A stretch of 64,000 bases of DNA from an uncultured delta proteobacterium (GCA_963765675.1 CAVXXK010000001.1:27485-91484); one strand, 5' to 3'. Shown: positions 4,588 through 20,095, counted from the stretch's first letter. Program-made: numbers and translations. The notes: generated by a model not told the origin, from the letters alone.

Positions 4588-6198
4588 ATGGCGAAAGCGC
4601 GAAAGACAGCCAAGCCGCGGAAGATTTTCGTTCCGGTGGTTCCACAAGGCGCGACTTGGATCGAAAGCGACAGCTACGACCGCCGCGCCTGGAGCGAGAT
4701 TCTGTCCGGCACTCCTGCGTTCAAGGACCTGACCGAGGCGGGCGGCGCGCTGGTCCCGCACTTCGACGCGCTGCTCGCGGATTTTTTCCTCGCGCTGTTC
4801 AAGTTCAACCTCGTATGGCACAAGCCCGGCGCCGTGCGCCGCGCGGCTGCCCTCAACCGCACAATCCTGGATGAAATTTTGCCTTCGCCCGCTTTCGAGG
4901 CGCTGAAAAACCGCACTCTGCTCGAAGAAGACAAGGCCGCGATCGCGGCGATTGTGCTCGGCGAGCGGGCGCTCGAAATGATTCGCAGCGAACGCTTCCT
5001 GAATCGGCGCGAGATGGTCGATCTGTGGGATCTCGAGCATCAGGAACAGGACCTCGCCGCGCGCGCCGACGCGCTCAAGACGATCCAGGAGATGACCGAG
5101 AAGCCCGAAGAGGAAGGCGCCGGCGGCAATCCCAAGGCGAGCGACGACGCAAAAAAGAAGATGGCTGCGATGCTCGAAACGGCGGCGCGCGCCGCGCAGG
5201 TCTCCGAGGCGCGGCTCAATCAGAAATCACGGCAGGTCGAGAGCGATCTCAAGAATAGCGATCACACCGAACTGCGCCGGATGCAGCTCAAAGCCGGAGA
5301 ACTCGCCGCCGAGATCGATCGCGCCGCCGAGGACAGCCACGATTTCAGCCGCGAGTTCGGGCAAGGCGGACGGATGAACGCTGGCGAGCGGCTCGAGCTG
5401 GGACGCCATCTGGCGAAAAGCCGCAAGCTCGGCGAGCTGGCGCGGATGGTCGGCCGCATGAAACAGGACGCGCGCGCGATTCGCCACAAGACGCTCGAGC
5501 GCGGCGTCGCCGAAGCCTACGATATCGAGCGCGGCGCCGACCTCGGCAGGATGATCCCGTCGGAGCTGGTCGCGATGCATCATCCAATTCTCGCGATCGA
5601 TTTCCGTCGCCGTCTGCTCGAATCCGATCTTCTCCAATACCGGCTGCGCGACGACGAGCAGAAGGGCAAGGGCCCGATGATCGTTTGTATCGACGTCAGC
5701 TCCTCGATGCAGGGGGACAAGGAGCTGTGGGCGAAGGCGGTGGGGCTGACGCTGATGGATATCGCGCGGCGCGGGCGGCGCCTTTTTCGCGCCGTGATGT
5801 TTTCCTCGGGCGACACGAGCCTCAAGGTGCTCGATCTGAATCGCGAGCGGCGCTATCAACCCGAGCTCGCGAAGGTGATCGAGATGGCCGAATATTTTCC
5901 GGGCGGCGGCACCGATTTTCAGCAGCCGCTCGACGCTGCCGTGGCGCTGCTCGAAGAGCGCAAGCTGAAGCGCGGCGATATCGTGATAATCACCGACGGA
6001 GAATCGCAAGTCGCGCCCGAGTGGCTCGCGCATCTGAAAGAGCGCAAGGAAGCTTTGCAATTTTCGATCTTCGGCGTGCTCGTCGATGTCGGATCGTCGG
6101 AGATGTCGTCGCTGCGGCAATTCGCCGACCGGATCACGTCGGTAAAAACGCTAAGCGACTCCGCCACCCGCGACATCTTTCTGCACGTGCAATCATGA
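4588..6198 (+). CDS. von Willebrand factor A (VWA) domain protein (CoxE/ViaA-like)
   Basis: 536 aa with a C-terminal VWA fold. It carries the MIDAS motif D-V-S-S-S-M (…MIVCIDVSSSMQGDKELW…) and …IVIITDGES…. GGAGG lies 9 nt upstream of the ATG. No MoxR-type ATPase partner is present in the window. Confidence 0.75.
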   Translation: MAKARKTAKPRKIFVPVVPQGATWIESDSYDRRAWSEILSGTPAFKDLTEAGGALVPHFDALLADFFLALFKFNLVWHKPGAVRRAAALNRTILDEILPSPAFEALKNRTLLEEDKAAIAAIVLGERALEMIRSERFLNRREMVDLWDLEHQEQDLAARADALKTIQEMTEKPEEEGAGGNPKASDDAKKKMAAMLETAARAAQVSEARLNQKSRQVESDLKNSDHTELRRMQLKAGELAAEIDRAAEDSHDFSREFGQGGRMNAGERLELGRHLAKSRKLGELARMVGRMKQDARAIRHKTLERGVAEAYDIERGADLGRMIPSELVAMHHPILAIDFRRRLLESDLLQYRLRDDEQKGKGPMIVCIDVSSSMQGDKELWAKAVGLTLMDIARRGRRLFRAVMFSSGDTSLKVLDLNRERRYQPELAKVIEMAEYFPGGGTDFQQPLDAAVALLEERKLKRGDIVIITDGESQVAPEWLAHLKERKEALQFSIFGVLVDVGSSEMSSLRQFADRITSVKTLSDSATRDIFLHVQS

Positions 6199-6698
6199 AA
6201 TCGACCGAATCGAAAATCGTGCTCGAGCCTATCGATCGCGGGAACTATCGCGCGCTGTTCAGGATGCAACTGCGGCCAGAGCAGGAGAACTTCGTCACTC
6301 CGCCGCGATGGACCCTCGCGCGATGCTACGTGCGGATGTTCGGCGACAACTTCGAGCATCTGCCGCATCTCATCCGCGCGGAGGGTAAAGTCGTCGGCTA
6401 CTGTACCACCGTGTGCGATGCGGCAAGCGAGGAAGAGTACTGGATCGACGACATCATGATCGACGCCGTGCATCAGAGAAAAGGCTACGGACGCGCCGCG
6501 ATGCGCGATACGATCGCGATGATCGCGGCGCGCTATCCGCGATGCCGCGCCGTCCAGCTCACCTGTTTCCGCGACAACCTCAACGCAGCGGCGCTGTACA
6601 AGAGCCTCGGCTTCGAGCCAACCGGCGCAGTAGATAACGAGTTCGGCGAACCAAACTACATCCTGCGCGGCGCAGCCCTCGACGCCTTCCGCCGCTGA
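6195..6698 (+). CDS. GNAT family N-acetyltransferase
   Basis: The ATG at 6195 overlaps the VWA stop (ATGA). …IMIDAVHQRKGYGRAAMRDTIAMIAARYP… is an acetyl-CoA binding motif (Q/R-x-x-G-x-G/A). Confidence 0.8.
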   Translation: MKSTESKIVLEPIDRGNYRALFRMQLRPEQENFVTPPRWTLARCYVRMFGDNFEHLPHLIRAEGKVVGYCTTVCDAASEEEYWIDDIMIDAVHQRKGYGRAAMRDTIAMIAARYPRCRAVQLTCFRDNLNAAALYKSLGFEPTGAVDNEFGEPNYILRGAALDAFRR

Positions 6699-6713
6699 GC
6701 CTCGCCCTCTGTC

Positions 6714-6885
6714 TGATTCCTCGCCCAGTATGGGAGAGGTTAGGTGAGGGACCTTATTCAGCGCGGCGCTCGAGCGCCGCGCGATTATAAAGAAAGCTCT
6801 GAGCAAGGCCGCCCTCACCCACGCGTCACGATGCTTGCGAAAAGAATCGCAAGCATCGCGCCACGCCGCCCTCTGCCGGGGGAGC
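6714..6885 (+). repeat. Structured dispersed repeat, copy 1 of 3 (MITE/REP-like, ~175 bp)
   Basis: CTGATTCCTCGCCCAGTATGGGAGAGGTTAGGTGAGGGACCTTATTCAGCGCGGCGC…CCCTCACCCACGCGTCACGATGCTTGCGAAAAGAATCGCAAGCATCG… is nearly identical to the reverse complement of 22160-22348. Its first ~75 bp recur at 34219-34294 in reverse orientation. It contains internal palindromes (GATGCTTGCGA…TCGCAAGCATC; GCGCGGCGC…GCGCCGCGC). Confidence 0.85.
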
Positions 6886-6920
6886 GTACCCAGCAGCGAT
6901 CCGCAGCAGAAAAAATAAAA

Positions 6921-6951
6921 GGGCCGGCGATTTGATCGCCGGCCCTTTTCC
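6921..6951. terminator. Rho-independent (bidirectional) terminator between the GNAT gene and the convergent diiron-protein gene
   Basis: GGGCCGGCGAT-TTG-ATCGCCGGCCC is an 11-bp perfect stem. It is followed by TTTTCC and preceded by AAAAATAAAA. Confidence 0.8.
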
Positions 6952-6973
6952 TGACATTTCGCGAACTTCGCGC

Positions 6974-7972
6974 TTACGCCGCTGAGGCCATCTCCATCAC
7001 GCCGAGCTGCTTATACCAGGACTCGGTGCGATCGTTGATCAGATCAAGCTGGCGCAGGCACGGGATGATCGTGTCGACGAACAGGAACGAGTTGAACTGG
7101 CGATCGAGCTGGCTCTCGGCCTCGGCCCACGCCGGATTACGATGCATCTCGTCCTCGATATCTTTCATCGAGATACCGACCTCTTCAAACACTGAGCTGC
7201 CCGACAGGAAGCCGTCGCGCGGCACGCCGTCTTCGACCTTGGTCACCATCAGATCGCACGCGGTGAAGGAAAATTCCTCGAGCTCCTTCTTTTCCTTGCC
7301 GTGAAGCTTGCGGACCGCGTCGCGCAGCGCGAGCATCCCGAAGCCCACGTGGCGCGACTCGTCCTTCATGATGTACTCGAGCAGCTCCTTGAGCAGATCG
7401 TCCTTGGTCTCGCGCTGCATGAAACGGAACGCCGCAATCGCCAGCCCCTCGGCGACAATCTGCATCCCGACGTACTTCGGCTCCCATCGCTCGTTCTTCA
7501 TGATCGCAGTAAGCAGCTTTTCCAGCGTCGGATCGATCGGATAGATGCGATCGAGCTTGGTGATGTACTTGCGGAAGCCCTCGACGTGGCGGGCTTCATC
7601 GAAGACCTGCGCCGCGGCGTTCATCTTCGCGTCCAGGTCGGGAACCGCATCGACGAGCTGTCCGCATACCAGCAACGCGCCCTGCTCTCCGTGCAGAAAC
7701 TGCGACAGCCGCCATGCCGCGAATTTGCGGTTGAGCTGAAGCTTCTTCTCCTCGGACAGCGAGCGATAAAGCTCCGTCTGGAACATCGGCATGATCGTCA
7801 TGTCGAGAACTTCCTTCTCGATCGGCCGGTCCCAGTTGATCGTGGTCGAGACGTTCCACTGATCGCGCTTGGCGTTCTCGTACAGGCGGTCCATCTGCGG
7901 AAACCGCACTTCGTAGTTCCAATCGAACACGCTGTCGAGCGGGGTGTGTACGTCAGTCCGTTCGTGAGCCAT
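6974..7972 (-). CDS. Ferritin-like diiron-carboxylate protein (AurF/R2-like oxygenase family)
   Basis: 332 aa with two E-x-x-H containing motifs (…FDEARHVEGF… and …KDESRHVGFG…) spaced as in diiron oxidases. It is adjacent to a TetR regulator. Confidence 0.55.
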   Translation of the reverse strand: MAHERTDVHTPLDSVFDWNYEVRFPQMDRLYENAKRDQWNVSTTINWDRPIEKEVLDMTIMPMFQTELYRSLSEEKKLQLNRKFAAWRLSQFLHGEQGALLVCGQLVDAVPDLDAKMNAAAQVFDEARHVEGFRKYITKLDRIYPIDPTLEKLLTAIMKNERWEPKYVGMQIVAEGLAIAAFRFMQRETKDDLLKELLEYIMKDESRHVGFGMLALRDAVRKLHGKEKKELEEFSFTACDLMVTKVEDGVPRDGFLSGSSVFEEVGISMKDIEDEMHRNPAWAEAESQLDRQFNSFLFVDTIIPCLRQLDLINDRTESWYKQLGVMEMASAA

Positions 7973-7989
7973 AAAAAATCCTCCAGTAA

Positions 7990-8604
7990 TTAACGGTTCT
8001 CGAGACGAACAGCTCGTTCGAGTCCGCCTAATGCGAAGTTAACGGTCGCGTCCTTGAGTTCGTCGAGCGGCAGATCGCCGCGTTCCAAAAGCCACGAGAT
8101 CGCTTGCGACAGCATCCCGATCGTCAGATTAGCAACCACTTCCGCGCGCGCGCCGATCGCCGGCGCGAGTTCGTCGCGTAAGTCGTTGATAAAAGTCTCA
8201 TGCACCCGAACCATCAGGTCCAGGAATGCCGGGCTATGCCCAAATACGATCCGGAAGCCCTCTGGATTCTCGGCGGCGGCGTCGAGAATCGTGCTGATCG
8301 TGATGCGCAGCATGTCCGCCGGGCTGTCGAACCCCTTTTTTGCTTCGGCCAATTTCTCGCGCAGCGACTGCGCGCCGTTCGCGGTGAGCTCGATGAAGAT
8401 TTCGTTTTTGGTCTTGAAGTGAAGATAGAAGGTGCCGAGACCCACGTCGGCGTCGGTCGCGATATCGGCGATCCGCGTGTCGTGGTAGCCCTTGCGCGCG
8501 ATTACACGTTCGGCAGCCTCCAAGAGATCAACCCGCGTCTTCTCACGACGTCGATCAAACCGGGTCGGTGCCTGCTCACTCGCCTTACGTGCAACTTCCG
8601 CCAT
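7990..8604 (-). CDS. TetR/AcrR family transcriptional regulator
   Basis: N-terminal HTH …RRREKTRVDLLEAAERVIARKGYHDTRIADIATDADVGLGTFYLHFKTKNEIF… is the TetR_N signature. Confidence 0.85.
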   Translation of the reverse strand: MAEVARKASEQAPTRFDRRREKTRVDLLEAAERVIARKGYHDTRIADIATDADVGLGTFYLHFKTKNEIFIELTANGAQSLREKLAEAKKGFDSPADMLRITISTILDAAAENPEGFRIVFGHSPAFLDLMVRVHETFINDLRDELAPAIGARAEVVANLTIGMLSQAISWLLERGDLPLDELKDATVNFALGGLERAVRLENR

Positions 8605-8605
8605 T

Positions 8606-8700
8606 AACTGAATATGTACTCGATTATGAATCTTGAGTCAAACACGACCGCGACTTCAATTATGAAATATTATTCAGTTATGAGCTGAGACTCGGCAAAA
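8606..8700. promoter_or_regulatory. AT-rich promoter region upstream of the tetR gene with short palindromes (candidate TetR operator)
   Basis: GATTATGAATC and TTCAATTATGAA palindromes, plus CTGAATA…TATTCAG inverted pair, in a locally AT-rich stretch between 8604 and the convergent gene end at 8755. Confidence 0.25.
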
Positions 8701-8754
8701 GTTCCGCGTAGTAGAACCGTTGTCTAGGCTTAGGCCCAATCGATCGGGAGTAGG

Positions 8755-9483
8755 CTAATTGCCGCCGGGAGGCTCGTCGGGCGGCTGGTCCGAGGTACCC
8801 GGACTGTCAGGCGAGCTTTCGTCGGGTGTGACTTCTTCCGGGACGATTACCGGCTCGGTGAAATCGGCCGCCAGGTTGCAGCACATCACGTAACTCGAAC
8901 CCGCGCGCGGCTGAGCGGCGTAGGCCTCGAGCGATCCATCGGCAAGGACCTTTACCGCCTGGTAGCTGGTCGAACCCGACGCGCGTTCGATCGTGAAGAC
9001 ATAGAATGAGCCGCGGTCGAGTGGTTCCGGCGGCCCTTCGTCCGGAATCATCTGCTGGTAGTGCGAGGGGAGTTTTCCGTACTCGAGGTTCTTCGGCGCG
9101 TAGTCTGCCTTTCCGAATGCAGAAATCTCCTCGGTGATGCCGCGGTCAGATTTTATATCCCAGATGGGCACACCGCCGTCGAAGCGGACCACCGAGGCGA
9201 CCTTGCCGCCGCTTCCCGCCGCGTTCGCGATAATCTCGGCGCCGAAGAATTTCGTCACCGTCGCGCGCACAAGCGTGTCGCCGCTCTTGTGATAGGTGAT
9301 TTCGACGGTGGCCTTCGGCGGCGGCATCGGCTCGCCCGGTCCGGCGTCGGCGGTGTCGTCGGTGTCGTCGTTGTTGGTTGTCGAGCAGCCCGCGACCATG
9401 AGCGCAACCATCAGAATGGCGGCGATCGCGCTGGCCCATAGGCGCCGTCGTGCACTGGCGCGCAGTTCATTATGCATCAGCAT
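8755..9483 (-). CDS. Putative lipoprotein of unknown function
   Basis: N-terminus MLMHNELRASARRRLWASAIAAILMVALMVAGCSTT has a positively charged n-region, an h-region and a lipobox (L-M-V-A-G-C). No recognisable domain. Confidence 0.5.
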   Translation of the reverse strand: MLMHNELRASARRRLWASAIAAILMVALMVAGCSTTNNDDTDDTADAGPGEPMPPPKATVEITYHKSGDTLVRATVTKFFGAEIIANAAGSGGKVASVVRFDGGVPIWDIKSDRGITEEISAFGKADYAPKNLEYGKLPSHYQQMIPDEGPPEPLDRGSFYVFTIERASGSTSYQAVKVLADGSLEAYAAQPRAGSSYVMCCNLAADFTEPVIVPEEVTPDESSPDSPGTSDQPPDEPPGGN

Positions 9484-9509
9484 ACCGATCGGCTAGTCTC
9501 TGCGGCCGG

Positions 9510-10886
9510 GTGGACATCGGGGATAAAAGCGAAAAGATCGGGCTCCGGCCTCTTCTAATCTACGCACAGGGACAGACCGGCCTCAACCTGTGCGCGACGC
9601 TTTCCGCGATGCATCTGCTGTATTTCTACAGCGATCGGCGCGGATTGTCGCCGGCGCTGGCCGGACTCGCATTTTTTATCGCGCTGGTGCTCGACGCTCT
9701 GACCGACCCGCTGGTCGGCAATATTTCGGACAGTGCGCGCTTCAAGTCGGGACGCCGGCGGCCGTTTTTTCTGACCGCGATCCCGATGGGTATCTGCTAC
9801 TACCTGCTGCTCTCGCCGCCGGCGTTGAACAAGGGACTGTTCGCGTGGTTCCTGGTTTTCTACTTCCTGCAACTGACCTCGCGGAAGTTTTACGAGACCG
9901 CGTACGGCGCGCTGATGCCCGAGTTGACGCTCGACTACGACGAGCGCACCCGCCTTTCTACCTATCGGCAACTGTTCGGTACGGCGGGCGATATCAGCGG
10001 AGCGCTGCTGCCGTTCGCCGCCGCCTGGATTTTCGCGAAGGGACTCGATTTCCAGATCACCGGCGGCGTCTGCGCGGTGATCGTCGCGGGCGGTGCTCTG
10101 TTCGCCTACGTCAATCTGCGCGAGCGACCGGGCTTCGCCGACCGCGAACGCTTCAACCTGCGCGAGTCGATGAAGAGCGCGCTCGCGAACCGCCCGTTTA
10201 TCATCCTGATGCTCGCGACCACGCTCGCGATCATGGCGATCAATATCCCGACCGTCCTGATCCGCTTCCTGGCGAAGTATTGGGTGCATGACGAAAACGC
10301 GGCCGCACGGTGGCTTATCGCGTACTTCGCGGGCTCGATGGTTTCGTATCCGTTCTGGTTTCGGATCACGGTGCGGTTCGAGAAAAAGCCCGCGTACGTC
10401 GTCGCGATGCTCGCCAATGCGAGTTGCTCGCTGATGTTCATGCTGCTCACTCCGCGCAACACGCTGTGGATGCTGGTGCTGATGGTGCTCAGCGGATTTT
10501 CCGCGATCGGAATCTGGGTGACGCAGATGTCCGCCGCCGCCGACGTGATCGAATGGGACGAAGAGCGGACCGGACGCCGGCAGGAAGGCGCGTACGGCGG
10601 AATCACCTCGATGGGAATAAAAATCGCGACCGCGCTCTCACTGGTCCTGGTCGGTCCGGTGATGGGATGGATCGGCTACCGGCCCGGGATGGCCGAGCTG
10701 CCGCGCGCGGCGGCCGAAAATCTGCGCACGCTGTTCGCGGTCGCGCCGGCGATAATTTATGTGCTGAGCGCGATCGTGTTTGCGCGCTATCCAATCACCC
10801 GCGCCAGCCATCGCGCGATGCGCGATCGCCTGGCCGCCCGCGGCGCTCCCGGCGAAGAAGCACCCGCCGAAAAATCGATCGCGTGA
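9510..10886 (+). CDS. MFS transporter, glycoside-pentoside-hexuronide (GPH) cation symporter family (MelB-like)
   Basis: …SEKIGLRPLLIYAQGQTGLNLCATLSAMHLLYFYSDRRGLSPALAGLAFFIALVLDALTDPLVGNISD… matches the GPH N-terminal signature, with ~12 TM segments. The track ORF starts at the ATG at 9450, but that overlaps the divergent lipoprotein start. The GTG at 9510 is proposed instead, so the start is uncertain. Confidence 0.75.
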   Translation: MDIGDKSEKIGLRPLLIYAQGQTGLNLCATLSAMHLLYFYSDRRGLSPALAGLAFFIALVLDALTDPLVGNISDSARFKSGRRRPFFLTAIPMGICYYLLLSPPALNKGLFAWFLVFYFLQLTSRKFYETAYGALMPELTLDYDERTRLSTYRQLFGTAGDISGALLPFAAAWIFAKGLDFQITGGVCAVIVAGGALFAYVNLRERPGFADRERFNLRESMKSALANRPFIILMLATTLAIMAINIPTVLIRFLAKYWVHDENAAARWLIAYFAGSMVSYPFWFRITVRFEKKPAYVVAMLANASCSLMFMLLTPRNTLWMLVLMVLSGFSAIGIWVTQMSAAADVIEWDEERTGRRQEGAYGGITSMGIKIATALSLVLVGPVMGWIGYRPGMAELPRAAAENLRTLFAVAPAIIYVLSAIVFARYPITRASHRAMRDRLAARGAPGEEAPAEKSIA

Positions 10887-10975
10887 AAGGTCTGCTTGAG
10901 CCTGTTCGCCAGCGGCGGTAAACAACGTCAATCCGCCAGCACATGAGCCCGCACAAACGCAGGCACCGCCCTACT
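10807..10975 (+). repeat. Direct repeat DR1 (3' end of the MFS gene plus ~90 bp downstream), left boundary of the Rhs island
   Basis: CCATCGCGCGATGCGCGATCGCCTGGCCGC…GGCGAAGAAGCACCCGCCGAAAAATCGATCGCGTGA…CGGCGGTAAACAACGTCAATCCG… recurs at 15153-15320 at ~85% identity. That second copy includes a remnant encoding …GHRAMRDRLAARGAPGEEASAEKSIA*. Confidence 0.85.
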
Positions 10976-10989
10976 GCGCCAACGGCAAC

Positions 10990-12549
10990 GTGACCACCTA
11001 CACTTACGATCCGATGGATCGCCGCGCATCAAGGACCGATGCGCTGGGCGCCGTGGAGAGCTACGCCTACGACGGAATGAGTAACCTTACCAGCCACACG
11101 GATCGCAATGGGAACGTAACCAGCTACAGCTACGACGGGCTGAACCGCAGGACGTTTGCGGGTTTTGGATACAACGGCAGCGGGTATCAGAGCACGATTA
11201 ACTATACGTGGGACGGGGGCGACCGCCTGACGCAGGTGGTGGATTCAATTGCGGGAACCATCTCGCGGACTTACGACGGGCTCGACGACCTGACCGACGA
11301 GCAGACGCCGACGGGCGAGGTCAGCTACGCGTATGACAACGCGAGGAGGCGGACGTCGATGACGGTGGTGGGGCAGCCTGCGGCGGCCTCCTACGCGTGG
11401 GACAACGCCAACCGATTGACCGGAATTACCCAGGGGAGCGCGTCGGTTGCGTTCAATTATGACAGCGCGAGCCGAAGGACTACGCTGACGCTGCCCAACG
11501 GGATCGAGGTGGGGTATAGTTACGACAACAACTCGCGGATAAGCGGGATGACCTGGACGTTGGCCGGCAACCAGATCGGAGACCTCGAGTACGATTACGA
11601 TGCGGATGGGCGCGTGGTCGAGAAGACGGGGAGCCTCGCGCAGACCAACCTGCCGCAGCCGGTGACCGGAAATACCTTCAATGCCGATAACGAGATGACG
11701 GCGTTCAACGGCACTCCGATGACTTACGACGCAAACGGCAACCTGCTCAACGATGGGAGCAACGCCTACGCTTGGGATGCGCGCAATCATCTGAGCGCGA
11801 TCAGCGGTGCGAATGCAGCCAGTTTCGTCTATGACCCGTTGGGGCGGCGGATCAGCAAGACTATCGGGAGTACGACGACGAGCTTCCTGTACGATGGGCT
11901 CAACCCAGTACAGGAACTTCAATCGGGCGCGCCGAGCGCGAACATGCTGACGGGGCTCGGGATCGACGAATACTTCCAGCGCAGCGATGCCTCGGGTGCG
12001 AGCAGCTACCTGACAGATGCGCTGGGCAGCACGCTGGCGCTCGCAAACCCGGCGGGCGGCTTAGCGACCAGCTATACGTATGATCCGTTTGGGACCACTG
12101 CGGTGTCGGGTTCGGGTACAAATCCCTTCCAGTTCACCGGCCGAGAAAATGACCTCAACGGTCTTTATTATTTGCGTGCCCGTTACTACAACCCAGCGTT
12201 GCAGCGATTCCTGAGTCAGGATCCCATAGGAGTCCGAGGCGGGATGAATCTTTATGGCTATGTCGGAAATAACCCTGTAAACTCTTTCGATTTGTTGGGA
12301 TTGGGCGGTACACCCTCGACGACGCCCACGCCGACCAGTTGTCCAACGCCGATTCCCGTGGATCCAACCCAGGCACCAACAACATGCCAAAAGCACCTAG
12401 CCTGTGAAATAGGATGGGAGGGCACATGTGACCAGTGCAACGAATTCGAGAATCCCCAGCCGGTATTTGTTTGTCACGTTGGCTGTGTCATTACAGGGGC
12501 GGTAGTATGCGAGATTGAGTTTCCCTGCAGCCTCCGGGGTAATGACTGA
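10990..12549 (+). CDS. Rhs/YD-repeat protein fragment (5'-truncated): YD repeats, RHS core end (…DPxGL) and an ~80-aa Pro/Thr-linker plus Cys-rich C-terminal tip
   Basis: Repeated YDxxGR/NxxSYxYD motifs and the core signature …GLYYLRARYYNPALQRFLSQDPIGVRGGMNLYGYVGNNPVNSFDLLGL. The C-terminal tip reads GGTPSTTPTPTSCPTPIPVDPTQAPTTCQKHLACEIGWEGTCDQCNEFENPQPVFVCHVGCVITGAVVCEIEFPCSLRGND. The reading frame opens at 10900 inside DR1 and has no N-terminal Rhs region. The first in-frame start is the GTG at 10990. Confidence 0.85.
   Translation: MTTYTYDPMDRRASRTDALGAVESYAYDGMSNLTSHTDRNGNVTSYSYDGLNRRTFAGFGYNGSGYQSTINYTWDGGDRLTQVVDSIAGTISRTYDGLDDLTDEQTPTGEVSYAYDNARRRTSMTVVGQPAAASYAWDNANRLTGITQGSASVAFNYDSASRRTTLTLPNGIEVGYSYDNNSRISGMTWTLAGNQIGDLEYDYDADGRVVEKTGSLAQTNLPQPVTGNTFNADNEMTAFNGTPMTYDANGNLLNDGSNAYAWDARNHLSAISGANAASFVYDPLGRRISKTIGSTTTSFLYDGLNPVQELQSGAPSANMLTGLGIDEYFQRSDASGASSYLTDALGSTLALANPAGGLATSYTYDPFGTTAVSGSGTNPFQFTGRENDLNGLYYLRARYYNPALQRFLSQDPIGVRGGMNLYGYVGNNPVNSFDLLGLGGTPSTTPTPTSCPTPIPVDPTQAPTTCQKHLACEIGWEGTCDQCNEFENPQPVFVCHVGCVITGAVVCEIEFPCSLRGND
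11150..12075 (+). repeat. Internal direct repeat (Rhs core-encoding segment), copy 1
   Basis: ~925 bp at ~90% identity to 13603-14525. Similarity ends at …GCGACCAGCTA (protein …LATSY). Confidence 0.8.
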
Positions 12550-12734
12550 TTGAGTATAGGCTCCTACCAGCAGACGCTATCCATGGCTATCACACGAAAG
12601 CAGTATTACTAAGAGGTGGCTTGCCGTTTCCCATAGATGGGCACGAGTGATTAGCAACTATCAAGTGCTAAGTTGTTTATGAGAATAGATCTCGTAAGTA
12701 TTAGTGGTTGTAAACGTAGCTTATAGGCATTGAA

Positions 12735-13151
12735 ATGCGGGGTGAGAAGAAATATGTCGGCAAGCATGTAGCACTTTTCATTGGTGTAGTGTACGCGATT
12801 ATCTGGTATCGAATTCCATATATAGCGGCTGGAGAAGGCTGGCTTAGTGTCTACTTGCCAGCCATTTCTCTGCTATTTGCGGTAATGCTCGTGCTCACGC
12901 TCTATTCCGATGACACGCCATGGTTGAATCTGACATACTTTTTCCCGGGCGTGATCATCGGCGTATCTATCGATACTCTAGTGTTCCACAGCAAGGCCTC
13001 GAGAATTGCGTGGCTATTCGAATCCCTAAGCCTTTGCGTGTTTCTAGCACCGATCGCTGTTTTGGCGACAGCGCTTGGTCGCTGGATTAGCAGGAGACGG
13101 AAAAGGCCTGGCAATGAAATTCCTGTTCATGATGAAAGCGAGACTCCATGA
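12735..13151 (+). CDS. Small multi-pass membrane protein in a low-GC segment; candidate Rhs immunity protein 1
   Basis: 138 aa, 3-4 hydrophobic helices. The GC content is markedly lower than the genome. It lies immediately downstream of the Rhs tip. No recognisable domain. Confidence 0.4.
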   Translation: MRGEKKYVGKHVALFIGVVYAIIWYRIPYIAAGEGWLSVYLPAISLLFAVMLVLTLYSDDTPWLNLTYFFPGVIIGVSIDTLVFHSKASRIAWLFESLSLCVFLAPIAVLATALGRWISRRRKRPGNEIPVHDESETP

Positions 13152-13602
13152 GATCGGCGGGGGAACGGAGTGATCATCCTCCAGTGCGTTGACAAAGCAA
13201 GCGAGAAGGTTCGACCGGTGCGCGTACGCGACTGGCGATCACACTATACGTTAGAAGCCTAGGGCGGACGGTGAACGGTTACGATCTCGTCGAGATGTTC
13301 TCTGAGGTTGGTAAAGTCCTGAGTTCGCAGATCATCTATGACCGCAAGACGAATCGTTCGCGGGGATTTGGCTTTCTCTTCGCGATCCGTTTTCTCGCGG
13401 CGTTTTCTCTGGTTGCTCTCGTGAGACCCAGCGATATCATTCGAAGTTGGAGATACCGTCCAGGCGATCCGCTCTGAGAAGGAACTCGTAGCAGTCGTGG
13501 TGCGCTCGAGAAGCACCCTGGCTAGCGAAACATGTTCCGGCGAATAATGCTAGGGTTCGACGGTCTTCCAGAACGGGTTAGAAAATATTCCTTACAAACT
13601 CA

Positions 13603-14525
13603 CAGTTGCATTCGGCTACAACGGGAGCGGCTATCAGAGCACGATCGGCTACACCTGGGACGGGGGTGACCGTCTGACGCAGGTGGTCGATTCAATTGCG
13701 GGAACGATCGCGCGGACCTATGACGGGCTCGACGACCTGACCGACGAGCAGACGCCGCCGGGCGAGGTCAGCTACGGGTATGACAACGCGAGGCGGCGGA
13801 CGTCGATGACTGTTGTGGGGCAACCTGCGGCGGCATCATACGCGTGGGACAACGCGAACCGGCTGACCGGAATTACCCAAGGGAGCGCTTCGGTTGCGTT
13901 CAATTATGACAGCGCGAGCCGAAGGACAACGCTGACGCTGCCCAACGGAATTGTGGTGGCGTATAGTTATGATAAAGATTCGCGGGTAAGCGCGATGACC
14001 TGGACGTTGGCTGGCAACCAGATTGGAGACCTCGAGTACGATTACGATCCGGACGGACGCGTGATCGAGAAGACGGGGAGCATGGCGGCGACCAATCTGC
14101 CGCAGCCGGTGACTGGAAACGCCTTCAATGCGGACAACGAGATGACGGCGTTCAACGGTACCGCGTTGAGCTACGATCCGAACGGCAACCTGCTCAACGA
14201 TGGGAGCAACACCTACGCCTGGGACACGCGCAATCATCTGAGCGCGATCACGGGCGCAAATACCGCGAGCTTCGTCTATGACCCGTTCGGGCGGCGGATG
14301 AGCAAGACGATTGGAGGAGCGGCGACGAGTTTCCTCTACGACGGCCTAAATCCCGTGCAAGAGCTTCAAGCTGGAACGCCGAGTGCAAACATGTTTACGG
14401 GACTGGGGATCGACGAATACTTTCAGCGTACCGACGCCTCGGGTGCGAGCAGTTATCTCACAGATGCGCTCGGCAGCACACTCGCATTGGCAAACTCGGC
14501 AGGCAGCCTCGCGACCAGCTACAAC
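13603..14525 (+). repeat. Internal direct repeat (Rhs core-encoding segment), copy 2
   Basis: See 11150-12075. Confidence 0.8.
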
Positions 14526-14672
14526 AAGGCCTTGGTTAGCTGTCTTGAAGGTTTGCGTGACGATCCGCACAACTGGCCTTTCCCGCCGGATCCAAGTGAC
14601 GATCCGGGAGACATTGGCGCACATGAGTATAGAGAAGGCGCAATCTATATATTCCAGCATGGGGTGTGGTGA
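13683..14672 (+). CDS. Second Rhs/YD-repeat fragment (truncated at both ends; no RHS core end; short divergent tail)
   Basis: The frame opens at ~13549 with no start until the ATG at 13683. Its protein is ~90% identical to residues ~60-360 of fragment 1 up to …LATSY. It then diverges into NKALVSCLEGLRDDPHNWPFPPDPSDDPGDIGAHEYREGAIYIFQHGVW*. This is probably a recombinational remnant (pseudogene-like). Confidence 0.7.
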   Translation: MVDSIAGTIARTYDGLDDLTDEQTPPGEVSYGYDNARRRTSMTVVGQPAAASYAWDNANRLTGITQGSASVAFNYDSASRRTTLTLPNGIVVAYSYDKDSRVSAMTWTLAGNQIGDLEYDYDPDGRVIEKTGSMAATNLPQPVTGNAFNADNEMTAFNGTALSYDPNGNLLNDGSNTYAWDTRNHLSAITGANTASFVYDPFGRRMSKTIGGAATSFLYDGLNPVQELQAGTPSANMFTGLGIDEYFQRTDASGASSYLTDALGSTLALANSAGSLATSYNKALVSCLEGLRDDPHNWPFPPDPSDDPGDIGAHEYREGAIYIFQHGVW

Positions 14673-14704
14673 TCTATCAATCGAACGGAAGGAGGGGGCT
14701 GACT

Positions 14705-15028
14705 GTGGGGGCCGCTGACGATAAGCAAATGTTAGTATTTAATGCGTTTCTAGCGGCGTTGGCGGCGCTATTGCCCTTTTGGTTTTATCATATTGGGTTA
14801 GAGTATTCGTTCCTCCAGAAGCTGCCCTACATGTTCAGAGGCTTGGCGTGGGATCCAATCGCCTTGAACGTTCTGCTATCAATTCCTTTCGTATTTCTAG
14901 CAATTCGCGCTCTCAGGTTGGCCGGCTCATTTCGGAGGAGCGTTCGTCTGCTAATTATAGCAGCTCGGGTTTGTGTGTTTCATTTACATTTTGCGAACAT
15001 TGTTCCTGTTGATAGTCTGGTCAATTAA
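14705..15028 (+). CDS. Small membrane protein, low GC; candidate immunity protein 2
   Basis: GGAGGG at 14690-14695, then GTG at 14705 (or ATG at 14729). …MLVFNAFLAALAALLPFWFYHIGLEYSFLQKLPYMFRGLAWDPIALNVLLSIPFVFLAIRALRLAG… is a hydrophobic AT-rich ORF immediately after Rhs fragment 2. Confidence 0.35.
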   Translation: MGAADDKQMLVFNAFLAALAALLPFWFYHIGLEYSFLQKLPYMFRGLAWDPIALNVLLSIPFVFLAIRALRLAGSFRRSVRLLIIAARVCVFHLHFANIVPVDSLVN

Positions 15029-15152
15029 TGGCTTCGCGCCCTAACGGCTGCATCGAAGTCGCGCCCGCAATATAAACACGCCGCCTCGAATGCGTGGTTG
15101 AGCGCGAGACCGAGCGTCCCGCTCACGATGCTGGCAGCGGAATAGGGTACGG

Positions 15153-15320
15153 CCATCGCGCGATGCGCGATCGGCTGGCCGCACGAGGCGCGCCCGGCGA
15201 AGAAGCATCCGCCGAAAAATCGATCGCGTGAGAGTCGGCTTGAGACTGTTCGCGAGCGGCGGTAAACAACATCAATCCGTTGGCACGTGAGCTCGCACCA
15301 GCGAAAGCAGCGCCATACTG
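15153..15320 (+). repeat. Direct repeat DR2 (degenerate copy of the MFS 3' end), right boundary of the Rhs island
   Basis: See DR1. It lies immediately upstream of the flavoenzyme gene start at 15329. Confidence 0.85.
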
Positions 15321-15328
15321 GACCTACA

Positions 15329-16471
15329 ATGCAATTCGACTCGATAGTGGTGGGCGTCGGCGGGATGGGCAGCGCAGCCGCCTATCATTTGGCGCACCGC
15401 GGACAACGCGTGCTTGGACTTGAGCGCTTCGACATCCCTAACGCGATGGGTTCCTCCCACGGCGTCACGCGCATCTTCCGGCTGCCGTACTACGAGGACC
15501 CGGCCTATGTCCCCCTGCTGCGCCGGGCGTTTCAGCTATGGCGCGAAATCGAGACTCGCGCGGGTGAGCCTCTTCTGTTCGTGACCGGCTCGATTGATTC
15601 CAGCCTGGAGGACGACGCGCTGTTTGCAGGCGCGCTTGCCTCCGCGCGCCAGCATAAGCTCCCGCACGAGGTGCTGACCGGCGCGGAAGTGAACCAACGT
15701 TTCCCAGGCTATCGTCTGCCGCCGCGTCATCGCGCGGTGTTTCAGCGCGACGGTGGGTTTGTTGCGAGCGAGCGTGCGATCGTCGCGCATGTGTGCGCCG
15801 CACAATCCGCCGGCGCCGAGATTCATGCGCGCGAGCGCGTGCTCGGCTGGGATGCCAGTAGCGGCGGGGTGCGAGTGACTACCGACAAGGGCCGCTATGA
15901 CTGCGCGCATCTGATTCTCGCCGCGGGCGCGTGGATGAGCGAGCTTGCCAGTCCGCTCGGACGCCTTGCGATTCCCGAGCGCCAGGTTCTCGCGTGGTTC
16001 CAGCCTCTTCGGACCGAGTTGTATCAGCCCGATCGGTTTCCAGTCTTCAATCTATCGGTCGAGGAAGGGCGTTTTTACGGATTGCCGATCTTCCAGGTCC
16101 CGGGATTCAAGGTGGGCCGCTACCATCACCGCGAGGAAACCTCCCCTGCTGACGAGATCCGGCGCGAGATCGACGCGGAAGACGAACGCATCCTGCGCCA
16201 GTTCACCGAACGCTATTTCCCCGCGGCCAGCGGCTCGACGATGGCACTGCGGACCTGCATTTTTACCAACACGCCTGACGAGCACTTTGTGCTCGATCGT
16301 CATCCGCAATTTCCGCAGGTGATCATCGCGTCGCCATGCTCGGGGCACGGGTATAAGTTCTGCAGCGTCATCGGCGAGATAATCGCCGACCTCGCAACTG
16401 GTGACGGAACCACGCGGCACGAGATCGGTTTCCTGAGATTGAATCGATTTACACGGGCCGCCAAAAGTTAG
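15329..16471 (+). CDS. FAD-dependent oxidoreductase, monomeric sarcosine oxidase / N-methyltryptophan oxidase (SolA/MTOX) family
   Basis: MQFDSIVVGVGGMGSAAAYHLA… is a GxGxxG dinucleotide fold. The C-terminal …SPCSGHGYKF… matches the covalent-FAD cysteine region of MSOX/MTOX. Confidence 0.8.
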   Translation: MQFDSIVVGVGGMGSAAAYHLAHRGQRVLGLERFDIPNAMGSSHGVTRIFRLPYYEDPAYVPLLRRAFQLWREIETRAGEPLLFVTGSIDSSLEDDALFAGALASARQHKLPHEVLTGAEVNQRFPGYRLPPRHRAVFQRDGGFVASERAIVAHVCAAQSAGAEIHARERVLGWDASSGGVRVTTDKGRYDCAHLILAAGAWMSELASPLGRLAIPERQVLAWFQPLRTELYQPDRFPVFNLSVEEGRFYGLPIFQVPGFKVGRYHHREETSPADEIRREIDAEDERILRQFTERYFPAASGSTMALRTCIFTNTPDEHFVLDRHPQFPQVIIASPCSGHGYKFCSVIGEIIADLATGDGTTRHEIGFLRLNRFTRAAKS

Positions 16472-16503
16472 CGATCGGCCGCCAGGCAACACCGAGTCAC
16501 AGC

Positions 16504-18165
16504 ATGAGCGCAATCACGGTTTTTCAGGCACGCAAGATCATCACGATGGATCCGGGCCGCCCGGCCGCGGACTCTATCGCGGTCAGAGACGGCCGAATCG
16601 TGTCGGTTGGCACGCGCGACTCGATCGGACCGTGGTTGCGGCGTTATGAACACGTATTCGACGACTCTTTCGCCGACCGGATCATCGTGCCGGGTTTCAT
16701 CGATCCGCATACTCACTTGAGCCAATCAGGCGGTTACATGCTGCTCAACTACGTCGGTCCGATACCGTCTCCGGGAGCCGAAGGAATAAATCCCGCGCTC
16801 CCGACTCGCGAGGCGGTGTGCAATCGGCTGCGCGAGCTGGATTTGGAGTTGAAGGATCCGGACGAGCCGCTGTTCGCCTGGGGCTACGACGCCGCGATGC
16901 AGGGTGGTCATCTGGATCGCGGCGCGCTCGACACGATCTCGAGCGAACGTCCGGTCTCGGTGCTCTCGTACGCACCGCACTTTGTGTACACGAACAGCGC
17001 GATGCTGCGGCTATTGGGGGCGACGCCGGAACTCAAGATTCACGGCGTCGGACGAACCGATGACGGGCGACTCAATGGTGTCTTCACCGAGATCGAGGCA
17101 ATCGGATATGCACTGGCGCCATTTCACGGAAAAATTCTGCGGCCCGAGCAGGCGCGGCAGGGACTTCGGCGGCTGGCTGACGTCGCCAAAGCCGCGGGCG
17201 TCACCACCACCGCCGATATGCTGTTCGGGATGAGAAATTTCGAATCCGAGTGGCGGACTCATCAAGAGGTCGTTGGCAACGAGTCGTTTCCGCTGCGGAT
17301 GCTGCTGGTGCCGTGGGAGGCGCCGATTCGAGAAAAGTTCGCCGCAGACCCAGGCTCATTCATGTCCGACCTCGAATCACGCGCGAGTGAGAAGCTTCGC
17401 TTTCACGGGGTCAAGTTTTTCAGCGACGGATCGTATCCTTCGATGTCGCTGCGGCTGAAGTACCCGGGTTATCTCGACGGCGGCAATGGACTGCGCGCCG
17501 ACATCCCATGGGATCAGCTCGCGCAGCGGATGTTGCCGTTCTGGAAAGCGGGCGTGCAAATTCATGCTCACGCCAACGGCGACGAAGCGATCGAGGCAGT
17601 GCTCGACGCACTTGCGCGCCTGCAATCAATCCATCCGCGCTTCGACCATCGCTTCACCATCGAGCATTACTGCATCAGCTCCCCCGACCAGGCCAGACGG
17701 CTGAAAGCGCTCGGCGGCCTCGCCAGCGTCAATCCATATTTCGTCCACTATCGAAGCCAACTTCATAGCGAGCACGGATTTGGGCCCGACCGCTCCGAGG
17801 CGACCGCGCGCCTGGGCTCGCTCGAACGCGAGGGGGTTATCTTCGCGCTGCATTCCGACTTCTCGCTCGTGGTGGCGCCGATACATCCATTGACGGCCGT
17901 CTGGATCGCGGTAAATCGAATCGCCGCTGATGGAACGACGGTCCAGGCGCCGGGCGAACGTATCGGAGTGGAGCGGGCATTTCGCGCGATCACGATCGAT
18001 GCGGCCTATGTGCTGGGGCTCGAACGCGAGCTCGGGAGCCTCGAAGCCGGCAAGCTCGCTGACTTCACGATCCTTGATGATGATCCGTTCACCTGCGACG
18101 TCAAATCGATTCACGAAATAGGGATTTGGGGCACGGTCCTGGCCGGCCGCAAACAACCGGCCTGA
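16504..18165 (+). CDS. Amidohydrolase family protein (Amidohydro_3-type metal-dependent hydrolase)
   Basis: 553 aa. …IVPGFIDPHTHLSQSGG… is the HxH metal-binding motif. It has C-terminal …HSDFSL… and …AVNR… regions typical of the family. Confidence 0.8.
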   Translation: MSAITVFQARKIITMDPGRPAADSIAVRDGRIVSVGTRDSIGPWLRRYEHVFDDSFADRIIVPGFIDPHTHLSQSGGYMLLNYVGPIPSPGAEGINPALPTREAVCNRLRELDLELKDPDEPLFAWGYDAAMQGGHLDRGALDTISSERPVSVLSYAPHFVYTNSAMLRLLGATPELKIHGVGRTDDGRLNGVFTEIEAIGYALAPFHGKILRPEQARQGLRRLADVAKAAGVTTTADMLFGMRNFESEWRTHQEVVGNESFPLRMLLVPWEAPIREKFAADPGSFMSDLESRASEKLRFHGVKFFSDGSYPSMSLRLKYPGYLDGGNGLRADIPWDQLAQRMLPFWKAGVQIHAHANGDEAIEAVLDALARLQSIHPRFDHRFTIEHYCISSPDQARRLKALGGLASVNPYFVHYRSQLHSEHGFGPDRSEATARLGSLEREGVIFALHSDFSLVVAPIHPLTAVWIAVNRIAADGTTVQAPGERIGVERAFRAITIDAAYVLGLERELGSLEAGKLADFTILDDDPFTCDVKSIHEIGIWGTVLAGRKQPA

Positions 18166-18256
18166 AAATCCTGAACAAATAAGAGGCGCGCGCCCGTGAG
18201 CCACCGTATGGGATTAGATTCTTCGGGGCGAGGATCTGTTCTCCGTTCGCGCGCGC

Positions 18257-19102
18257 CTATTTGATCGGCGGCAGAAAATCCGGGAAATCTTTCGACGGCT
18301 TCATCTTCCATGCTGGCTTGCGTTTTTGCAGGAACGCAGTGACGCCCTCATGCGAGTCCGGCTGCTTGCCGACCCACCAGAAGGCGTTCGAATCGACCGC
18401 CTGCGCCTTCTCGATACTGTCCTCGGCGAGCAGGCCCCACGTGAGCCGCTTGGTCATCGCGACGGAAACCGGCGCGGTATTCTCGGCGATATCGAGCGCC
18501 ATCTCGCGCACCTTGCCCATGAACTCCGCGTCGGGCCATACGTGGCTGACGATTCCGAACTCGAGCGCCTCTTTGGCGTTGATAATCTTCCCGGTCAGCA
18601 GCAGCTCGTTGGTTTTCGCAAGCCCGATCTGCCGCGCGACGGTCCACAGGCTCAGCGCCTCCGGGATAATTCCGCGGCGCACGAAAACGAACCCAATTCG
18701 CGCGCTCTCGGCCGCGACACGAATATCCCACTGCATCGGCAGCGTGATTCCCATTCCGACCGCTGGACCGTTGATCGCCGCGATGATCGGCTTCTTCATA
18801 TTCCAGGGACGCACCGCCGGACGCCGCGGCGTCTCGCCACGTTCGGCGCGTTTATCGGCGTTGAAAGTGTCGCCGCCGCCACCCGAAAGATCGGCGCCGG
18901 CGGAAAACGCGCGGCCCGCGCCAGTCACGACGATCACGCGCACGCTGTCGTCGCCATCAAGATCGGCGAACGCCTGGTAGAGTTCGCCACCCATCGCGGC
19001 GTTGAACGCATTAAGCTTCTCCGGCCGGTTGAGCGTGATCGTTGCCACGCTCTGCTTGATGTCGACGAGAATTGCTGTCTGAGCCATCGCACTAGCCTCC
19101 AA
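18257..19102 (-). CDS. Enoyl-CoA hydratase/isomerase (crotonase) family protein
   Basis: …ATITLNRPEKLNAFN…VIVVTGAGRAFSAGADLS… is the crotonase signature. The true start may be the Met at 19087 (MAQTAIL…). Confidence 0.85.
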   Translation of the reverse strand: MEASAMAQTAILVDIKQSVATITLNRPEKLNAFNAAMGGELYQAFADLDGDDSVRVIVVTGAGRAFSAGADLSGGGGDTFNADKRAERGETPRRPAVRPWNMKKPIIAAINGPAVGMGITLPMQWDIRVAAESARIGFVFVRRGIIPEALSLWTVARQIGLAKTNELLLTGKIINAKEALEFGIVSHVWPDAEFMGKVREMALDIAENTAPVSVAMTKRLTWGLLAEDSIEKAQAVDSNAFWWVGKQPDSHEGVTAFLQKRKPAWKMKPSKDFPDFLPPIK

Positions 19103-19318
19103 TATGATCGCGCCCGCCCTGTCCCGCTTATACCGCGCATCGGCGGCGCTCGAAAAGCCGCAGCGTCCGGGATTCCTCGCGCGCCAGCCACGCGCGGGAA
19201 TGACACGCGAACTGCTTCACACGATCTCAGATCCACCGCCTCTTCGTAGGACCGCGCCGAGACGCGCCCTTCTGATGACATCCCGTTAGTACGCCACTAC
19301 AATCGCATTCGAACGGAT

Positions 19319-19828
19319 TTGCAGGATGCGGAGCACGCAACCGACGATCATCTCACCGCAAGAATCCTCGGTGCTGAAGCCAAGTTGAAAATACAAACGG
19401 CACAGGCGATCGGCTTTCTGGTTGGCGCGGTGGGGGGACTGGTGGGGTTTTCACCGGCCAGCCGAATTGGAGCGGTGCTGTGGGGATTTCCCCCCACTAG
19501 TCGCGGGGGTTGGATGGCCGTCTCGGTCGTTATTCTAAGCCTTGCGACCGCCCATGGGATCGCCGCGATCTTAGCGTTGAACCAGCGACCGGCAGATTGG
19601 CACGGCAGCTTCCGGTCTCAATGGCGCCAGCTTCGGCAGGTCACCGACAAGTGCTCGTTGGGTTTCTTCCTGGCGGTGTTGGGGTGGCTTACGTACAACA
19701 GATTCACGGGCGACATATCGACAGAAAACTTTGTTGTGTCAGGTTCAATATTCCTTCTGATCGTGCTGTTTCTAGGCGGCGGGGTGAACAGCTTTCTGCC
19801 GCATCGACGAGAGAGGGTGCGACGGTGA
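19319..19828 (+). CDS. Hypothetical membrane protein (lower-GC segment)
   Basis: 169 aa with several hydrophobic helices (…AIGFLVGAVGGLVGF…, …FLAVLGWLTYNRF…, …IFLLIVLFLGGG…). No recognisable domain. The region 19300-20080 is AT-richer than its surroundings. Confidence 0.35.
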   Translation: MQDAEHATDDHLTARILGAEAKLKIQTAQAIGFLVGAVGGLVGFSPASRIGAVLWGFPPTSRGGWMAVSVVILSLATAHGIAAILALNQRPADWHGSFRSQWRQLRQVTDKCSLGFFLAVLGWLTYNRFTGDISTENFVVSGSIFLLIVLFLGGGVNSFLPHRRERVRR

Positions 19829-20079: not shown

Positions 20080-20095
20080 GCGGTTTCCCCTAAAA

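Follow-up and report, generated by a model that had tools for sequence, protein, structure and literature searches.

A 64,000-nucleotide stretch of DNA from an uncultured delta proteobacterium (GCA_963765675.1 CAVXXK010000001.1:27485-91484), hereafter referred to as the window, carries an island of about 4.2 kb with two truncated Rhs genes and small open reading frames (ORFs) for membrane proteins, bracketed by two copies of a 170-bp host sequence that have diverged from each other. The island separates a GPH/MFS_2 transporter gene (hereafter MFS) from the gene of an oxidase dependent on flavin adenine dinucleotide (FAD). With moderate confidence, positions 10977-15151 are interpreted here as a non-autonomous and decaying insertion of foreign DNA, which constitutes an orphan array of Rhs tips and immunity genes in an uncultured Binataceae genome. 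All coordinates are positions in the 64-kb window, of which the region 9510-19087 was the main subject of the analysis.

Flanking repeats and junctions

The direct repeats that bracket the island (Table 1) were aligned by BLASTN of the region against the window, which gave an alignment of 170 columns with a single gap and 87.1% identity (E 6e-54). An earlier note on this DNA, made from the sequence alone, had placed the same pair at 10807-10975 and 15153-15320 with about 85% identity, and was thus correct to within 1 nucleotide (nt) and 2%. Identity between the copies is 93% in the MFS-coding part (about 80-83 nt) and 81% in the spacer that follows the stop codon (about 90-94 nt); the same spacer precedes the oxidase (flavoenzyme) gene in sister lineages. 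The reading frame remnant that had been noticed in the second copy is present as ORF 15094-15231, which contains the copy-2 MFS remnant (...GHRAMRDRLAARGAPGEEASAEKSIA / ...HRAMRDRLAARGAPGEEASAEKSIA, each up to the stop codon).

Comparison of 25 codons in the coding part of the two copies revealed 4 synonymous differences and 1 non-synonymous difference, with a synonymous divergence (dS) of 0.23 and a ratio of non-synonymous to synonymous divergence (omega) of 0.08. For the whole MFS gene, dS is 0.19 between the window and the related locus L085 and 0.44 between the window and L086. The spacer of another relative, L096, is 86% identical to copy 1 and about 84% identical to copy 2. The repeat copies are therefore as far apart as the orthologues of sister lineages and neither is closest to the other, which excludes a recent duplication in place and fits the import of one copy. 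We infer that one copy is resident and that the other came from a related lineage. The claim that the divergence reflects DNA of a diverged relative agrees with these values, since the spacers are mutually 81-86% identical and the coding dS matches that of the whole MFS gene in the comparison with L085.

The strongest of the alternatives, albeit an unlikely one, is an origin in place, in which the 170-bp duplication was made during the insertion itself (for example through a switch of the replication template to an Rhs array, with a return 170 bp upstream of the point of exit) and the copies diverged afterwards. No donor carrying the patch would be required, the junctions are blunt or share 2 nt as is typical for illegitimate events, and a 4:1 excess of synonymous differences is not unlikely given that copy 1 is still under selection. 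However, the L096 spacer is at least as near to each copy as the copies are to each other. The duplication would also have to date to the split of the lineages, yet contigs that read through the locus (L085, L086, L089 and L114) are without the island, and L096-L098, which start at the MFS 3' end, show no island downstream.

The left junction at 10976/10977 is sharp and blunt, with homology to the L096 spacer ending at 10976 and homology to an Rhs gene of L084 beginning at 10977. At the right junction (15151-15153) a fragment of a TrbL-type gene is joined to MFS position -80 with an overlap of 2 nt. Both junctions, spacer to Rhs at 10976/10977 and trbL to MFS -80 at about 15152, are illegitimate.

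No transposase, integrase, terminal inverted repeats or tRNA-like site was found in the region, an Rfam scan of it returned zero matches, and the counts of promoters and terminators predicted in it are at chance level. The island does not have the properties of a transposon or insertion sequence, as it contains no transposase ORF, has no terminal inverted repeats and is flanked by a repeat of 170 bp that is only 87% identical; the earlier view that the repeats are not a transposon target-site duplication holds on the same grounds. Nor does it have those of an integrative and conjugative element (ICE) or an integrated plasmid, since the transfer genes amount to one trbL fragment of about 80 bp, an integrase is lacking and the repeats are long and diverged. 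The island is at most a relic of such an element.

The Rhs modules

The contents of the island, given in the earlier note as two 5'-truncated Rhs fragments, two small AT-rich membrane ORFs and a remnant of an RRM gene, were all recovered by Pfam matches, hydrophobic segments and guanine-plus-cytosine (GC) content. Rhs fragment 1 was called as an ORF at 10990-12549 (519 amino acids, aa) with the start GTG at 10990. Its frame is open from 10900, within repeat 1 as had been observed, and Rhs homology begins at 10977. The fragment carries a complete Rhs-associated core domain (TIGR03696, residues 364-438, model positions 1-76 of 76) ending in ...NSFDLLGL, where full-length Rhs toxins have a motif of the DPxGL type, followed by a tip with zero Pfam or NCBIfam matches. 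Fragment 2 is unmatched by TIGR03696.

YD/Rhs repeats are present in both fragments (PF05593, E 3e-30 and 4e-17; TIGR01643), and neither amounts to a full-length Rhs shell, which comprises some 1,200 or more residues and an N-terminal delivery or plug region such as PAAR. Of the 1261 positions of the RHS_core model, fragment 1 covers 1159-1261 only and fragment 2 covers 582-693. The array is thus an orphan one that lacks the N-terminal and delivery region, as had been proposed, and no further Rhs sequence occurs in the 64-kb window. Of the properties that mark an orphan rhs-CT/rhsI module (partial core, core end, tip, small ORF and low GC), module 1 shows all and module 2 all but the deleted core end. 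Such modules usually lie 3' of a full-length rhs gene whose core is almost the same; this position is not observed in the 64-kb window, where the upstream gene is MFS.

An intact counterpart of module 2 is found in L084 at 3784-5617, where positions 5472-5989 match window 14527-15043. Relative to L084, module 2 has lost about 468 bp (L084 5004-5471), comprising the core end and most of the toxin including its N-terminus; the toxin/immunity island is in this respect not intact. The stop codon of the fragment 2 tip overlaps the start of ORF 14666-15028 (GTGGTGA).

The core segments 11164-12074 and 13611-14521 form a 911-bp ungapped repeat of 86.3% identity (BLASTN). An omega of 0.106 at a dS of 0.56 between core 1 and core 2 suggests that they diverged as working genes in separate lineages and were united later. 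The two cores are judged from these values to be of two separate functional sources that diverged under purifying selection. Displacement of rhs tips as proposed by Jackson et al. 2009 (PMC2935791) fits such a history of cores from separate lineages.

The nearest cores to those of the window (85-87% nt identity) are orphan fragments in other Binataceae metagenome-assembled genomes (MAGs), L083 and L084. In the MAG L084 (ENA ERZ25039477 contig_68110, 3518-9897) an Rhs array comprises, besides small ORFs, a split fragment (307+390 aa) and others of 408 aa and 75 aa; it is flanked by HicAB and ParD genes, and no full-length rhs is present there either. In L083 (GCA_049795175.1, 9609-11154) an Rhs fragment with 85% nt identity to fragment 1, whose start differs by no more than about 28 nt in core position, lies directly 3' of an XRE/HTH-like ORF and downstream of a kdp operon. 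A search of a plasmid database with the island gave two weak Rhs-core matches only.

The 120 best homologues of Rhs fragment 1 reach at most 903 aa, including those on contigs of 0.1-2.5 Mb, and many of them begin at a conserved in-frame Met of the repeat. In this soil-metagenome family, Rhs genes seem either to be mostly fragmentary or to be split by long-read frameshifts. A fixed 5' end of the orphan fragments, as of a discrete cassette, was considered because the window, L083, P0073 and P0030 begin alike, and was rejected as the starts of the 120 homologues form a continuum; the small clusters of starts arise because gene callers pick conserved in-frame Met codons.

Small open reading frames and the trbL fragment

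The exact protein of candidate immunity gene 1 was recovered from only two short contigs, L081 and L082. The product of candidate immunity gene 2 is 57% identical (E 2e-29) to that of the small ORF after the intact Rhs gene of L084. Neither of the ORFs, 12735-13151 and 14666-15028, matches a Pfam or NCBIfam family. The GC content in the tips and immunity genes drops to 42-49%, against a window mean of 62%. These genes are regarded as candidate tip and immunity genes on the basis of their position, the stop/start overlap in module 2 and their membrane character.

A stretch of about 120 nt that precedes repeat 2 has a host-like GC content, and its minus strand encodes VPYSAASIVSGTLGLALNHAFEAA. 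This fragment is 85% identical over 26 aa to P0418 (E 4.9e-4 by phmmer against 1.84 billion representative proteins; pairwise E 7e-13), a TrbL/VirB6 conjugative transfer protein (TIGR02783 TrbL_P, E 1.7e-22; Pfam TrbL, E 4e-13). By tblastn it is placed at 15156-15073, overlapping the start of repeat 2 by 2 nt. The scrap of trbL makes a conjugative vehicle likely for the island, whichever recombination route was taken.

Table 1. Features of the island and its flanks in the 64-kb window
Feature	Position	Strand	Evidence or remark
GPH/MFS_2 transporter gene, 458 aa	9510..10886	+	Pfam MFS_2 E 5.8e-84; exact protein P0374
Direct repeat copy 1: last 80 nt of MFS gene incl. stop, and 90-nt spacer	10807..10976	+	BLASTN
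Rhs fragment 1 core, 5'-truncated	10977..12303	+	RHS_repeat E 3e-30; homology to L084 Rhs from 10977
Rhs fragment 1 C-terminal tip, 81 aa, Pro/Thr linker and Cys-rich domain, candidate toxin	12304..12549	+	GC 56%
Candidate immunity gene 1, 138 aa, four hydrophobic segments	12735..13151	+	GC 49%
Remnant of RRM-type RNA-binding protein gene	13271..13477	+	Pfam RRM_1 E 9.2e-7, model positions 14-44 of 70 only
Rhs fragment 2 core, 5'-truncated, without core end	13611..14521	+	Repeat of 11164-12074; called ORF 13683-14672, RHS_repeat E 4e-17
C-terminal ~50 aa of toxin tip, fused to fragment 2 core by ~468-bp deletion	14522..14672	+	L084 comparison
Candidate immunity gene 2, 120 aa, three hydrophobic segments	14666..15028	+	GC 47%
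Fragment of TrbL/VirB6-type conjugative transfer gene, ~27 codons	15073..15153	-	phmmer, tblastn; abuts repeat copy 2
Direct repeat copy 2: 80-nt remnant of orthologous MFS 3' end, and spacer, just 5' of oxidase start codon	15152..15320	+	BLASTN
FAD-dependent oxidase gene (sarcosine / N-methyltryptophan oxidase type), 380 aa, start ATG	15329..16471	+	Pfam DAO E 4.5e-51; exact protein P0241
Amidohydrolase gene, 553 aa, partner of oxidase	16504..18165	+	Pfam Amidohydro_3 E 3.7e-63
Enoyl-CoA hydratase (ECH) gene, convergent	18257..19087	-	MFS neighbour in relatives without insertion

Arrangements in related lineages

Variants without the island, which the earlier note had suggested looking for, do exist in relatives and are of two types. 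In the first, represented by L085 (MFS 97% identical in aa, with about 92% nt synteny on both sides), a convergent ECH gene follows 253 bp after MFS; homology to the window breaks off with the MFS stop codon (10887) and resumes at 18245, the stretch 10888-18244 being missing. The same compact arrangement was found in L086-L088 (MFS 91% identical in aa), L089 and L100 (90%) and L114 (95%), so that five lineages with MFS identities of 90-97% have MFS next to ECH and no trace of spacer, island or oxidase. As the closest relatives have MFS facing ECH, all of 10888-18244, with the oxidase and amidohydrolase genes included, is lineage-specific.

The junction of MFS and flavoenzyme, which had been taken as ancestral and as a fixed right flank, is accordingly neither, and the flavoenzyme-amidohydrolase pair is itself accessory. 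The oxidase is missing from L085, L086-L089 and L114; its nearest other homologue is 95% identical in aa and the next at most 77%. Among species-representative genomes the pair was found in L001 and L008 only (Binatia; 74-75% aa identity), neither of which has MFS upstream. Similarly, a scan of JGI metagenomes for MFS yielded 67 loci in which the gene is followed by ECH, by 4-7 kb of other genes or by unrelated genes, with spacer, island and oxidase found in none of the 67.

The second type is represented by L096-L098, which are Logan assemblies, one contig being present in 14 samples. The last 34 nt of MFS are followed by the spacer, the oxidase gene (95% aa identity), the amidohydrolase gene, ECH, DUF2231 and LysM, and no island sequence is present on the contig. 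These contigs start about 30 nt before the point at which divergence from L085-type sequence is expected. Such a start would be expected from a k=31 assembly graph in which MFS-ECH and MFS-oxidase strains co-occur, which suggests a full MFS gene followed by spacer and oxidase. The L096 lineage thus looks like the state before the island was gained. Its spacer interleaves copy-1-like and copy-2-like states and is not a two-block hybrid, which argues against L096 as a deletion product of the window arrangement.

A further relative, a 64,344-bp ENA contig, encodes a lipoprotein (P0412), a complete L085-like MFS protein (P0373) that is 97.2% identical in aa to that of the window, and an oxidase (P0361) that is 99.5% identical with two substitutions. 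No relatives of Rhs1, Rhs2 or Imm1 attributable to this contig were present among the clusters or the best Rhs matches. The jump in relatedness from MFS to oxidase points to recombination between lineages at exactly this spot. The pairing of P0373 with P0361 would imply that lineages have recently exchanged the oxidase segment at the locus.

These arrangements bear on a reading of reversed polarity, in which an old island of the clade was lost elsewhere through recombination between the repeats, or through larger deletions in the MFS-ECH type. Direct repeats of 170 bp are able to mediate deletion, their 13% divergence implies age, and a contig that ends at the repeats (L081, below) is what is seen when molecules with and without the island co-occur. 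The five compact MFS-ECH lineages, without any trace of spacer, island or oxidase, stand against such losses, as do the interleaved spacer of L096, which is not a two-block hybrid of repeat 1 and repeat 2, and the low GC and foreign composition of the island. An old island lost elsewhere is considered improbable.

Contigs that carry the island only

Two contigs consist of island sequence. L081 (ENA ERZ25039501, 4,219 bp) corresponds to window 10935-15153 at 100% identity, and L082 (Logan) to window 11451-13751. The left junction is independently reproduced in L081, in which 42 nt of repeat-1-type spacer are joined to Rhs at 100% identity. L081 is short of 126 nt of repeat that a closed circle would hold and hence does not testify to a circular form. 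That it ends at the repeats is the expected graph output for co-occurring molecules with and without the island.

That the island might be a recent or present excisable circular cassette, moving among Binataceae and re-entering at the 170-bp patch of MFS end and spacer, is very doubtful. Were it the case, L081 and the trbL scrap would be traces of a free or conjugatively transferred form, and the cassette would give physical form to the pool of episomal, dissociated rhs tips that Jackson et al. 2009 predicted.

It is also highly improbable that two co-occurring strains were wrongly joined near their MFS 3' similarity, so that repeat, island and repeat do not lie on one molecule: although the source is a metagenome-assembled contig of 2.44 Mb, strain mixtures are evident at the locus, and the island also forms a separate 4,219-bp contig ending at the repeats while the right junction is without independent support, the left junction is reproduced at 100% in L081, a 170-bp repeat of 87% identity is too short and diverged to mislead a long-read assembler, and a chimeric join is not expected exactly at the start of MFS homology beside an unrelated trbL scrap.

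Proposed origin and present role

The anatomy, the pattern of presence and absence, the divergence of the repeats and the signatures of selection described above are consistent with the following course of events. The genome would first have gained the spacer-oxidase-amidohydrolase segment at the variable spot after the TetR-lipoprotein-MFS block. The island would then have arrived on DNA of a related lineage, with a divergence about that of the sister lineages L085 and L096, and this incoming DNA would have borne its own last 80 nt of MFS and 90-nt spacer. Pairing at the 170-bp patch, or at the patch together with the oxidase gene on the right, may have directed integration.

Two routes are conceivable. 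On route (a), a circle from a conjugative plasmid or ICE, in which the patch sat between the trbL scrap and the Rhs fragment, would have entered by a single (Campbell-type) crossover within the patch. On route (b), a linear fragment would have been taken up by homology-facilitated illegitimate recombination, with its homologous crossover to the right of repeat 2 and its other end joined illegitimately at 10976/10977. The donor for route (b) would have been a relative with a conjugative element joined to a truncated MFS upstream of spacer and oxidase; copy 1 would be resident and copy 2 from the donor. The two routes fit equally well and are indistinguishable here. The Campbell-type integration put forward in the earlier note has thus gained in one respect, a circular vehicle being more plausible with a TrbL fragment at repeat 2, and cannot be told apart from one-sided homologous plus illegitimate recombination. 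A donor tract to the right of repeat 2 was sought in sliding identity to L096 and L085, and none is clear. An L085-like donor of repeat 2 was likewise dropped, as the identity to L085 is 92.5% for repeat 2 and 95% for repeat 1.

Most of the vehicle and a portion of module 2 would have been lost in later deletions. Module 1 now consists of 440 codons from the 3' end of an Rhs core, whose core end is complete, the 81-aa Cys-rich tip and a candidate immunity gene with four transmembrane segments; in module 2 a deletion has fused an Rhs core fragment to a toxin's last 50 codons, and a candidate immunity gene of three transmembrane segments is translationally coupled to them.

Several points weigh against this interpretation. 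No donor genome with the island in an earlier context was found, and no full-length rhs gene, which the earlier note had expected as a donor, was found in the window or among the 120 best homologues of Rhs fragment 1 (P0002-P0120), all of which have 903 aa or fewer. The right junction is present in the window assembly alone, as L081 ends 2 nt into repeat 2. The three-way spacer distances are small counts, of 13-17 differences per about 90 sites, and the repeat-2 branch when polarised with L085 holds only 2-3 synonymous changes and 1 non-synonymous change, a weak signal. The TrbL call involves about 27 codons with a library-wide E-value of only 5e-4. As the contigs of L096 start within the 3' end of MFS, the full upstream MFS gene is deduced and not seen, and in the 64,344-bp contig the adjacency of MFS and oxidase is unproven, the two being known from proteins alone.

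With no shell N-terminus, no delivery domain and, in module 2, no core end, the Rhs fragments are predicted to be unable to act as delivered toxins. By analogy with known orphan modules (PMC3150448; PMC3967940), the immunity genes may still protect against the cognate tips of neighbours, and the Rhs pieces are at most a recombination reservoir. Fragment 1 starts 14 nt past a cut in the oxidase start region, downstream of MFS and with no predicted terminator. It thus appears to sit at the former position of oxidase translation start, and read-through expression is possible.

Comparison with known systems

The orphan rhs-CT/rhsI arrays of the Enterobacteriaceae (PMC2935791; Poole et al. 2011, PMC3150448; Koskiniemi et al. 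2014, PMC3967940) are like the present array in having partial cores of variable length as long direct repeats, a different tip and small ORF after each core, and a trough of low GC over the tips. They likewise lack a usable start and a delivery region, show further decay by deletion, and point to an outside source and not to duplication in place. The present array differs from them in that the upstream gene is MFS and not a full-length rhs, and the cores are 86% and not more than 90% identical. It is also set apart by the duplicated non-rhs host segment that brackets it, by the conjugation scrap and by its uncultured Binataceae host. The logic of a single crossover by a circle was applied to rhs tips by Jackson et al. 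2009 (PMC2935791); the patch in the present case is non-rhs sequence.

In type VI secretion system (T6SS) clusters of Vibrio cholerae, orphan immunity arrays have been ascribed to homology-facilitated illegitimate recombination (Kirchberger et al. 2017, PMC5361080). These arrays likewise have foreign effector-immunity modules beside a conserved anchor, one homologous and one illegitimate side, and old immunity genes that are kept. They are anchored at a conserved 5' part, that of the effector or of the T6SS cluster, whereas the anchor here is the end of an unrelated housekeeping-type gene with its spacer, and no secretion system is nearby.

In Campbell-type integration a circular replicon enters by one homologous crossover, as in the formation of Hfr strains and the integration of suicide plasmids. 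Features shared with it are direct repeats that correspond to the common homologous segment, a difference between the copies that would equal the divergence of donor and recipient if the circle came from a relative, and a conjugation remnant. In contrast to typical cases, the island retains neither a replicon nor an integrase, origin of transfer or further transfer gene, a circular form was not detected, and a patch of 170 bp at 87% identity is a poor substrate for RecA.

Other features of the locus

The MFS gene closes a TetR-lipoprotein-MFS block that is conserved in most of the 67 JGI loci. In the window (7990-10886) and these loci, the TetR gene, the lipoprotein-like ORF and the GPH/MFS gene are kept together across Binataceae, and synteny breaks after the MFS stop codon. 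In a more distant relative (L150, JGI Ga0182024_10187825, 2019-2212) two internal MFS fragments (residues 240-304) occur about 1.1 kb 3' of MFS. They were rejected as the same MFS-end duplication because they come from the middle of MFS; they represent different pseudogene debris at the same variable spot.

Between ECH and DUF2231, about 0.9 kb of the window (19207-20091) is missing from L085 and L096 and holds ORFs without Pfam match; it is a second small lineage-specific insertion near the first. An intergenic, palindrome-rich repeat of about 165 bp occurs in the window at 22177-22340, 6721-6884 (inverted) and 34211-34284, the copies being 88-89% alike. It is also present in L085 (three copies, one within the MFS-ECH spacer), L089, L096, L099, L100, L114 and L126, and looks like an element of the repetitive extragenic palindrome (REP) or miniature inverted-repeat transposable element (MITE) type of Binataceae.

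Significance

The locus is ordinary toxin-gene debris of a known kind and changes no concept. It also calls for caution, as the neighbouring oxidase and amidohydrolase genes are accessory too and have apparently been exchanged between lineages at the same spot. Orphan arrays of Rhs tips and immunity genes are well known and their acquisition from outside is accepted; their entry into the chromosome is mostly inferred. Here the scar of entry is legible: a host segment is present in two copies that have diverged, one junction is sharp and illegitimate, and a scrap of a conjugation gene is left. As the arrangements before insertion can be compared in sister lineages, the locus provides a small natural case study of the homology-directed capture of toxin/immunity DNA, set in an uncultured phylum (Binatia) and distant from any resident rhs gene.

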